Shown in pieces: positions 57,401 through 60,400 of a stretch of DNA of 64,000 nt. A program made the position numbers and the translations under genes. Source of the stretch: Laetmonice hystrix (taxonomy: Eukaryota); NCBI GenBank assembly GCA_965235115.1, contig OZ249436.1, forward strand, positions 2,668,001-2,732,000. Direction: 5' to 3'. Position 1 is the first letter of the stretch. Each line of letters starts with the position of its first letter. The notes beneath the pieces were generated by a model, which ran no database searches, was not told where the DNA came from, and was given only the letters and a program-made list of their open reading frames with translations.

Positions 57401-60400
57401 GTTTCACTATCCTGTCTGAGAAAAAACTCTTTCTCGGTCAAAAGGTCAGTTTCCAGTTTTATATGACATTTAATTTCTAATTTCTGAGGTCAATTTGTTT
57501 TGGAGATTAGGTAGGTAGGTTAACTTTGCCCCATCAGGGCAAATATTAGGGGTCTACTTTTAATTCTGAGCATAAAGACAAATTTTAAGTTATTATACCT
57601 GATAGAATATAACCCTGCAGTTGCTAATGTTAAAAAACATTTTTAACATTTTTATGTTTCAGTTGACCGTCTTACAGGGGGATCTGGTTAAGGTAGCAGC
57701 AGATGCTATCGTCCACCCGACAAACAACACATTCTACATGGGGGGTGAAGTAGGTGGGTTCTTGGGTACTCTCAAATTGTGGTGTGTTTGAATCGTATAG
57801 ATGCTATTGTCCACCCAACAAACAACACATTCTACATGGGGGGTGAAGTAGGTGAGTTCTTGGGTACTCTCAAATTGTGGTGTGTTTGAATTGGTTAGTT
57901 CACCAGCAGATGCTATCGTCTACCCAACAAACAACACATTCTACATGGGGGGTGAAGTAGGTGAGTTCTTGGGTACTTTCTGATTGTGGTGTGTTTGAAT
58001 CGTATAGATGCTATTGTCCACCCAACAAACAACACATTCTACATGGGGGGTGAAGTAGGTGAGTTCTTGGGTACTCTCAAATTGTGGTGTGTTTGAATTG
58101 GTTAGTTCACCAGCAGATGCTATCGTCCACCCGACAAACAACACATTCTACATTTTCTGTTCCCAGGTCAAACACTGGAGAAGGTGGGAGGAAAAGACTT
58201 CCAGCAAGAGGTAAAGGAGCTGCTCAGTAACCATGGCAACCTTGACACGGCAGAAGGTGAGTGGTCCACAGGCTTAATGTGCTCCACATACTAAAGAATA
58301 TGTTTGTATGTCTATTTTGGAATTATATACTGTAAGATTCTGTAGTGATTACTATAAAGATAATATGCAAATTTTCAATAAATTTGTCTTATTTTTCTGT
58401 TCCTAAGTCCAGAGTTGTTAACACTAAATATTACAAGTATATTGGTGAGATGTAAAATTGACTCCTTCCCCTAGTGACCCCCCCCCCCCATGATATCTTT
58501 TTGACTTTTCTAATCAGTTGAATCAAGTAAATGCTATTATTTCTTAACTTGGCTCAAACATTGTGCTGTCCTGTACCTTTCACAGTTTCTCTGCTGGTCA
58601 CTTTATCTTTTCAAACAGTTCTGAATAGTGTATCAGTCTGTGTTGGATATCTGCCTGCATGATCTCATCTTTAAGCATTCTGACCTGGTATAGAAATGTG
58701 ATAAAAGTCAAGTGTTGTATTTACATGGTGCCCAGACATCAATCTCTAGCACTTGGATTTACTAATGAAGTAACTACAATTATTATTTAATGATGAAAAG
58801 GTAACTTGCCGTTTAACGGTGTGAATCTGATTATAAGAGTTCTGTGCATACTTCTGAGAATGGAAAATTGCTAGATTTTTTCTCCCCAATATTTCAGAGG
58901 TCAGTATGTTTTGTGGATGGTATTAGAATTTCGTTGTCTTACTTTTCTTGCACATTTCATCTGTTCCTGTAAATCTTTTCCAGCGGCCATTTGTCCAGGC
59001 CACAATTTCCCTGGTAGATTTGTCATCCATGTAAATAGTCCTTCATGGGGACAACAGAATGCTCAACAGCTTCTCGAAAAGTCTGTCAAAAATATTCTTG
59101 CACTTGCCGACGAGAAGCACCTCAAAACATTGGCAATTCCGTCTGTCAGCAGTGGAAAGTAAGTGCAGCCACAGAGCTCCTACCAGGTGGCGCTATAAGG
59201 GAATATTTAATGTCACATGGTCATGTTTTATGAGGTCGACCATCCCTGCGGCTGTCAGAAAGAATATTTCACATTATGCGTAAATCTTTAAAAGGAGTCA
59301 GCTGGAAAAAAAATCACATTCTTGTTGACAAGTGGTCAGTTTTATAGTGTGATTATTTATTCAGCAGCAAACGTCAAATTTTATAAAATAACTTATTCAT
59401 TCCGGTGTTCCCGTTTCTTTTTTCTACCATGCAGCCGTTGGTTTAGATCTTACGAAACCTTACTATGAGACATATTTACTATGGGACACATTTCCTGCCA
59501 GCTTATATATTGACACAACTAATCACAGGCTGGATGTCAAGTCGCTTCCTGTCTCTTTAAAAACAAAAGTATATCAGTCAATAAATTCAAAAATACAACG
59601 AATGTGCCAAACTTAGCCTTGTGATTGACTGGCTAGAAGCATTTGTACTGTAGTGGCTGCAATCCTGGGAAAACAAACCTGCCACTGAAGTTGTACTTCT
59701 TTAGTAGATTTAAACAAGTATTGCTCTTGTTCAGTCCACTGTATGTCTAGGCGTGCATGGATTCAAACCAAAATAAAAGAGGTAAAACTTGATTTTTTTT
59801 ATAGATTTGCAGCCATTGCTCTAATGGGCTTTAAGTCCTGAAACCTGACGTTGTATTTGTGTGATGTTGTATTTGGGAAGTATTGACTGATGTACTGTTG
59901 CGCTAGCTGTAAGTCCTTCTACCCACACCCCGACCTACGGTACCATCCCGACCCACCACCATCCAGCGGCGTGACTACACAGAGACGGGCACTCCCCCAT
60001 CTAACATCAGCGAAACCTGCTGGACGGGTAAAGATATGGTCCTCCTTGTTGTTCTTTGACAGCTGCCATCTGCCCCGGCCACCACTTCCCAGCCAGATAT
60101 GTCATACACTGTAATGGCCCCACATGGAAGGCCGACAGTTCACAACAGAATCTCGACAAGACTGTCAAGAACTGCCTTGCTCTCGCAGATGCAAAGAACC
60201 TCAAATCTGTGGCCTTTCCCTCCATTGGCAGTGGGCGGTAAGGTTGCGTGCTGTTGCTGTTAGTCCCAGTATTTGTAGTGGTTCTACCAAAATTAATTTT
60301 AATTTTCTGGGGTGGGGAGTTTGTGGGGGATTATTCCATGTGTACAGTCTTTCAATGAAAATTTGAAATTATTAGAAGGGCGGAAATTGCATGTAAGTTG

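Follow-up and report, generated by a model that had tools for sequence, protein, structure and literature searches.

A macroH2A gene with a duplicated macrodomain exon

The window analyzed here (the whole stretch of 64,000 nt from contig OZ249436.1 of Laetmonice hystrix) contains a macroH2A gene in which one exon of the macrodomain is present as two homologous tandem copies, 6a and 6b. The transcription unit lies on the + strand at 54461-62562 and has seven exons, one of them duplicated; each internal exon is preceded by an AG acceptor and each of exons 1 to 6b is followed by a GT donor. Exon 1 (54461-54632) opens with the ATG at 54461, encodes the start of the H2A histone fold and ends at a GTAAGT donor (as a fragment, it matches Pfam Histone with 20 bits, under the cut-off). 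Exon 2 (56674-57059) encodes the end of the histone fold, the H2A C-terminus and a lysine-rich linker (Pfam Histone_H2A_C, 55.4 bits, cut-off 20). Exon 3 (57355-57444), where the macrodomain starts, and exon 5 (58167-58256, 90 nt) were placed by reading the sequence and its splice sites. Between them, exon 4 (57663-57753) is the homologue of the exon that is switched in vertebrate macroH2A1.1/1.2 and is 1.1-like, with the equivalent of D203, HPTN and GGEVG. Exon 6a (58984-59158) encodes the a-type cassette, HVNSP..KNIL..IPSVSSG then N, and exon 6b (60063-60237) encodes the b-type cassette, which is the chordate-like form; the intron that separates them (59159-60062, 904 nt) has GT-AG at both flanks. 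The last coding exon, exon 7 (62400-62562), ends in LDS and the stop codon TGA at 62560-62562.

When exons 1-5, 6a or 6b, and 7 were joined by script, the spliced protein was 388 aa in length. It has the tripartite layout of macroH2A, with an N-terminal H2A histone fold, a basic linker and a C-terminal macro domain, and it is 73% identical to the macroH2A proteins of Lineus longissimus and Lingula anatina (389-390 aligned columns). A preliminary description of this DNA had named the gene as macroH2A, and the Pfam matches and the identity to the Lineus and Lingula proteins bear this out. A search of the whole assembly (627 Mb, 35 contigs) for the duplicated exon returned 6a and 6b alone, which indicates one gene with two cassettes and not two genes. 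The macroH2A gene is thus present in single copy, with a 1.1-like exon 4.

The two copies of the sixth exon have the anatomy of mutually exclusive exons: they are adjacent and homologous, equal in length and phase, and bounded by canonical splice sites. Both are 175 nt long. Exon 6a lies between the acceptor ...TCTTTTCCAG and the donor GTAAGT, and exon 6b between ...TTCTTTGACAG and GTAAGG. Both are entered after one base of a split codon (the G at 58256) and left two bases into another, which the T at 62400 completes as AAT (N) after 6a and as CGT (R) after 6b. The C-terminal ends are therefore IPSVSSG+N (then AGFPK) for 6a and FPSIGSG+R for 6b, and there is an inner difference of HVNSP (6a) versus HCNGP (6b). 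The preliminary description had given the two exons with the same lengths, sites and phases, the same isoform ends and the VNSP/CNGP difference; all of its coordinates were confirmed, as were the ends. It had also called both exons stop-free, which holds in the coding frame that they share. Exon 6a is open in that frame only, while 6b is also open in frame 0, by chance.

As 175 is not a multiple of 3, joint use or joint skipping of the two exons breaks the reading frame, as had been predicted and as the scripted joining reproduced. With 6a and 6b joined together, a stop codon arises inside 6b, 125 nt ahead of the last exon junction, so the transcript would be eligible for nonsense-mediated decay (NMD). 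With neither exon, a stop occurs in the last exon after 297 aa. Given the 904-nt intron and the ordinary GT-AG sites, there is no steric or U2/U12 ground for exclusivity. The 15 pairs of inverted repeats in 58257-62399 are all short, AT-rich or transposon-like; one 14-nt pair links intron 5 to the inside of 6b, and nothing is claimed for these repeats as competing RNA structures that enforce exclusivity.

The copies have diverged under purifying selection. They are identical at 36/59 residues and 116/175 bases, with a saturated proportion of synonymous differences (pS 0.72), a proportion of nonsynonymous differences (pN) of 0.22 and a dN/dS of approximately 0.11. The residue count and the excess of synonymous differences match those of the preliminary description, and the ratio is far from the value near 1 that it had named as the mark of a pseudo-exon. 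Both exons match the same part of the Pfam Macro profile (PF01661, positions 47-105), 6a with 51.5 bits and 6b with 63.4 bits (cut-off 22). A search for sequencing runs with the locus returned no RNA run and three sets of DNA contigs from one sample of one study. Among the 40 base differences and nine indels listed for these contigs, none falls in 6a or 6b; the introns on either side, from 58490 to 60461, have 15 of the substitutions and one of the indels. The freedom of the exons from the listed polymorphisms is a weak hint of constraint.

Conservation of the exon pair in other animals

Protein searches returned two matches among 20 candidates for a 6a query and 293 among 298 for a 6b query, and a profile built from five a-type exons gave 300 matches among 3269 candidates. 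The best match to 6a was a "core histone macro-H2A.1-like isoform X1" of the ribbon worm Lineus longissimus (79%). Across phyla, identity to a-type exons is 79-81% for 6a (Lineus, Lingula and Liolophura), and identity to b-type exons is 77-88% for 6b (for example, 79% for Ostrea X2 and 77% for Branchiostoma), whereas 6a and 6b are just 61% identical to each other. Because isoforms of one gene fall within clusters formed at 90% identity, 30 such protein clusters were opened and their members were compared. In 14 lophotrochozoan species, RefSeq X isoforms (X1/X2) were found that are identical except inside the homologous exon. These species are the nemertean Lineus, the brachiopod Lingula, the polyplacophoran Liolophura, the bivalves Ostrea, Pecten, Mya, Argopecten and Mizuhopecten, and the gastropods Biomphalaria, Littorina, Pomacea and three species of Haliotis.

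Sixteen pairs (that of the window, those of the 14 species and one transcript pair) were then compared with each other. Mean identity between species was 0.76 for a-type with a-type and 0.73 for b-type with b-type, compared to 0.66 for a-type with b-type within a species. As each type is closer to its own type in other species than to its partner in the same gene, the cassettes are orthologous across phyla. The pair is common to at least four phyla: molluscs, brachiopods, nemerteans and annelids. The preliminary description had proposed an old pair maintained by selection and had suggested looking for both exons in related invertebrates; both types are indeed found there in the protein collections, and the proposed age proved to be an understatement. 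Among non-lophotrochozoans, nine member pairs from 10 clusters (with the Apostichopus and Timema clusters left out) showed no isoform difference in the exon 6 homologue.

Evidence for transcription of both forms comes from relatives. Two Logan proteins, P0159 (a-type) and P0014 (b-type), are encoded by contigs of 999 and 1511 nt, respectively. Both proteins cover three or more exons, and their sequences do not differ outside the cassette. In addition, full-length open reading frames of 363-406 aa (12 a-type and three b-type) were found on contigs of 1.2-4.7 kb, which are too short to include introns and so represent spliced mRNA. Both forms thus exist as spliced mRNA in relatives, and 6a and 6b are presumably both used in Laetmonice hystrix. 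Frameshifted products with both exons included, as expected from the frame logic, are also present in RefSeq (Saccostrea X3 and Pomacea X3).

A profile scan identified two tandem copies of the exon in 3/252 proteins, from the clam Tegillarca, the annelid Paralvinella and the centipede Strigamia. In each of these gene models, the a-like copy comes first, the same order as in the window. In Strigamia maritima (P0143), a full copy ending in ..GTGN is followed by a partial second copy ending in ..GSGR. This N-then-R order is that of the a/b pair; it reflects either an ancient pair held in common or a duplication that arose independently.

Several other proteins recovered in the searches depart from the usual pattern. 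The land snails Bradybaena (P0173/P0217) and Candidula (P0176/P0186) each have two macroH2A proteins encoded on different contigs. Both forms have the a-like HVNSP core, and one ends in ..SSGN and the other in ..SSGR. The R forms nest within the gastropod a-type clade (100/98) and may represent a gene duplicate that has taken over the R315 state. P0215, a 107-aa protein annotated as [quoted passage not shown], shows 63% identity to exon 6a along its entire length and looks like a fragment of an animal macroH2A under a bacterial name. P0005, a 378-aa macroH2A from a transcript-like contig of 2.4 kb, has an a-like core (LVNSP, KNVL and LPKVS) and lacks three residues of pocket loop 2, the position of G314 among them; its ADP-ribose pocket is probably degenerate.

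Residue differences and the ADP-ribose pocket

The cassette aligns to chain residues 100-156 of the human macroH2A1.1 macrodomain structures (1zr3, 2fxk, 3iid and 3iif), and the macroH2A protein P0126 of a relative matches 1zr3/3iid with an E-value of 3.6e-82. With human numbering anchored on D203 and G224, the exon encodes residues 258-314 and the split codon encodes residue 315. Five positions best discriminate the two types in the 16 pairs. Position 273 is V in all a-type exons (16/16) and C in all b-type exons (16/16). Position 279 is G in 15/16 a-type exons and K or S in 16/16 b-type exons. Position 294 is I or V (16/16) in the a-type and C (15/16) in the b-type, and position 308 is I or L (16/16) in the a-type and F (12/16) in the b-type. 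At position 315, N is found in 15/16 a-type exons and S in the remaining one, compared to R in 16/16 b-type exons. Position 275 is mostly S in the a-type and mostly G in the b-type.

The residues expected of an ADP-ribose pocket are present with either cassette. G314 is kept in both cassettes of all pairs and is invariant in 26 aligned full-length macroH2A proteins (as G316 in Lineus numbering). The constant exons retain the equivalents of D203, G223-G224 and F348, with exon 7 reading ..QVYFVLYD, and the loop-1 exon is without the 3-residue insertion, as in a 1.1-type pocket. In human macroH2A1.1, G224E and G314E each abolish binding of poly(ADP-ribose) (PAR) (PMC5770377). When modelled with AlphaFold from 26-row alignments, the a and b isoforms of Lineus have identical secondary structure: within the cassette, a strand (259-263), a second strand (271-276), a helix (285-302), a third strand (307-310/311) and then the start of a loop. 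The pLDDT is approximately 80-95 over the macrodomain and is lowest in loop 2 (72 for a and 59 for b). Based on these models and on the retained residues, both isoforms are predicted to be folded, pocket-competent macrodomains, and the retention of G314 in both cassettes together with the D203, G223-G224 and F348 equivalents leads us to infer that both bind ADP-ribose. If the two differ in function, the fixed R/N difference beside G314 is the most promising candidate for the cause, and the residues at 273, 294 and 308 have the look of a core triplet that has co-adapted.

We propose that this single-copy macroH2A gene uses a tandem-duplicated exon as a mutually exclusive pair and that both isoforms bind ADP-ribose, with different affinity or preference; we give this explanation a probability of about 80%. 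A single 175-nt exon would have been duplicated in tandem long ago, and each mRNA would take either 6a or 6b to produce a 388-aa histone. The two proteins would differ only in residues 258-315, which are predicted to form two strands, followed by helix 4 and strand 6, and then pocket loop 2 (S-x-G/S-S-G314-R/N315) as far as its midpoint. Exclusivity would be enforced by at least the reading frame, and joint skipping would truncate the macrodomain. The difference in affinity or ligand preference would be set by R315 (b) versus N315 (a) and by the core triplet, which is C273/C294/F308 in the b-type and V273/I-V294/I-L308 in the a-type. The effect of the switch on binding of ADP-ribose or on PARP is one that we infer from these residues.

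Several points weigh against this explanation. First, the use of 6a and 6b in Laetmonice hystrix rests on conservation. Second, the RefSeq X1/X2 isoforms are automated models. Third, the placement of residue 315 over the diphosphate and distal ribose is presumed by analogy with other macrodomain structures. Fourth, position 312 (G or S) is variable within the a-type. Fifth, positions 273, 294 and 308 may reflect core packing only, in which case the switch might not touch ligand binding.

The last two of these points lead to the alternative that survives best, in which the switch is real and acts elsewhere than on ADP-ribose binding, for example on fold stability, redox sensitivity or the protein-binding surface of helix 4. 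Sites 273, 294 and 308, which are among the five that discriminate best, are hydrophobic or core-like and co-vary, the b-type has two extra cysteines (C273 and C294) that would fit a redox role, G314 and the P-S-x-x-S-G loop are retained in both cassettes, and the pocket residue at 312 is not fixed in the a-type. However, the one fixed non-conservative site, R versus N/S at 315, adjoins G314 in pocket loop 2, the residue whose change to E abolishes PAR binding (PMC5770377). A switch that bypasses the ligand is in our view the less likely reading.

Less probable again is that exclusivity is not strict and that joint inclusion is a regulated unproductive outcome (through NMD or truncation) that tunes macroH2A dosage. 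The frameshifted RefSeq forms of Saccostrea (X3) and Pomacea (X3) include both exons, and the 904-nt intron with its GT-AG sites poses no steric or spliceosomal bar to joining. In human, reads that join both exons were reported for 22% of frame-incompatible mutually exclusive exon clusters (PMC5740500). However, the forms with both exons are perhaps splicing noise caught by automated annotation, and regulation of this kind would supplement our proposed explanation and not replace it. That one of the two is a decaying pseudo-exon in Laetmonice hystrix, with the other alone used, is hardly credible: although the sequencing runs with the locus are DNA only, both exons are open, with consensus splice sites and phase kept and a dN/dS of 0.11, each is far closer to its own type in other phyla (79-81% for 6a and 77-88% for 6b) than to its partner (61%), and neither has any of the polymorphisms listed.

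Relation to other macrodomain switches and significance

The proposed switch between 6a and 6b can be compared with that of vertebrate macroH2A1.1/1.2 (MACROH2A1, formerly H2AFY). The two belong to the same family, share their exon boundaries and have a tandem-duplicated exclusive pair within the macrodomain that changes pocket residues. The X isoforms of fish and salamander vary in one exon, which reads QVVQAD..HPTN..GGEVG in one form and NLIHSE..NPTN..KDDLG (three residues longer) in the other. This exon is the homologue of exon 4 in the window; the 90-nt counterpart of exon 5 is left out of an isoform in the newt. Vertebrates thus swap the upstream exon (D203..HPTN..GGEVG, pocket loop 1), with copies that differ in length by 3 codons, whereas the exon swapped here lies two exons downstream (residues 258-315, loop 2) and has copies of equal length, joint use of which breaks the frame. 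Vertebrate macroH2A1.2 does not bind ADP-ribose. The preliminary description had placed the switch on a different exon from that of vertebrates, and the vertebrate isoforms agree with this placement. As a member of the class of frame-incompatible mutually exclusive exon clusters, the 6a/6b pair is of the same kind as those described in PMC5740500, with adjacent homologous exons of equal length and phase in a folded domain and a premature stop upon joint inclusion; it is notable for its age and its location in a histone.

A vertebrate-type 1.1/1.2 duplication of exon 4 was considered and rejected, as the window has one full-length copy and the extra copies are partial. The upstream exon had previously been described as a single full-length, 1.1-like copy; this was upheld, with the addition of four partial tandem copies of its 3' half in intron 4 (57800-58152, + strand), three of which have a donor and the start of an intron. 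Together with the original, they form a young array at 57697-58153 (period 207, 2.2 copies, 96% matches). Its unit consists of the last approximately 50 nt of exon 4, the GT donor and the start of the intron, such that there are five occurrences of the coding piece in total and four of the donor; the last partial copy is joined directly to the acceptor tract of exon 5. DNA word depth over the array is approximately five times that of its flanks, and short-read contigs break at both of its ends. The array repeats the very exon that vertebrates duplicated for 1.1/1.2.

Two macroH2A isoforms of the octocoral Dendronephthya gigantea (X2/X1, P0231 versus P0264) are 363 aa each and differ only in the last approximately 50 residues after ..IGSGA (29 differences). 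This pattern resembles yet another alternative-exon pair in the macrodomain, the third, and separate from the other two.

Repeats are also found elsewhere in and around the gene. Two very high-copy intronic repeats (61854-62201 and 55785-56061) have word depths of approximately 4.5e5 and 1e5, respectively, compared to approximately 55 in their flanks. A perfect inverted repeat of 17 nt (61854-61870 and 62185-62201) encloses the first of them, in the manner of a miniature transposon. Starting 300 nt past the stop codon is an array of 15 tandem copies of a 54-nt unit (62864-63690, 96% matches), and upstream of the gene are a 52-nt array of 23 copies (51500-52677) and an (AGAA)63 microsatellite (53284-53537).

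From its distribution, the duplication is judged to have been present already in the ancestor that molluscs, brachiopods, nemerteans and annelids share, if not earlier. A tree of the exon was built from 77 rows and 58 columns, which are too few to resolve most forks. In this tree, the lophotrochozoan b-type exons group with those of amphioxus, vertebrates and Pycnogonum and the second Strigamia copy at 90/89 (not starred), while the a-type exons form a comb, without resolution, together with those of hemichordates, echinoderms, arthropods and cnidarians. A single clade of all 44 lophotrochozoan rows was not rejected by the approximately unbiased (AU) test (lnL difference 9.6, p = 0.384). That the pair is older than Lophotrochozoa and dates to the protostome or even the bilaterian ancestor is doubtful. 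If it were so, the single exon of chordates (amphioxus and vertebrates) would be the surviving b copy, with a-like exons in hemichordates, sea urchin and cnidarians, and the pocket loop of human macroH2A1.1 would descend from one of two ancient alternative cassettes. Splicing would then have gained control of the macrodomain on no fewer than three separate occasions: in vertebrates through the loop-1 exon, in the present gene through the loop-2 exon and in an octocoral through the last exon.

Invertebrate macroH2A is reportedly a single gene of 1.1-like type (Rivera-Casas 2016 and Guberovic 2021 are said to describe it so). Full-text literature searches, whose reach did not include three of the most pertinent macroH2A papers, returned no description of the a/b pair, and a prior mention is possible. 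An introduction from 2025 places the alternatively spliced macroH2A exon in vertebrate evolution (PMC12551714). A survey of annelid histones kept one transcript per gene and deemed protein-changing splicing rare in histones (PMC12153100), and the text of a survey of mollusc histones contains neither "splic" nor "isoform" (PMC12210499). A bivalve methods paper notes variation in the exon composition of macroH2A between Mytilus and Crassostrea and nothing further (PMC5550673). The a/b isoforms are already present in RefSeq as automated X1/X2 models for 14 species, which reduces the novelty of the pair. Taken as a whole, the preliminary interpretation stands as to macroH2A, the homologous exclusive exons, their age, the selection on them and an exon distinct from that of the vertebrate switch; its claim to novelty is what these RefSeq isoforms diminish.

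To our knowledge, macroH2A is the sole histone with a metabolite-binding domain, and the vertebrate 1.1/1.2 switch has a central place in the connection that the field draws between chromatin, PARP1 and NAD metabolism. The pair described here is a second, independent exon switch in the macroH2A macrodomain, and histone splice switching is therefore not solely a vertebrate invention. Studies of invertebrate macroH2A that keep one transcript per gene miss half of the protein repertoire. The natural variant pairs (R315 versus N315, and C/C/F versus V/I/I) are on hand for probing how the pocket functions. An independent pair in at least four phyla, altering the other pocket loop, means that selection has put the pocket under splice control more than once.

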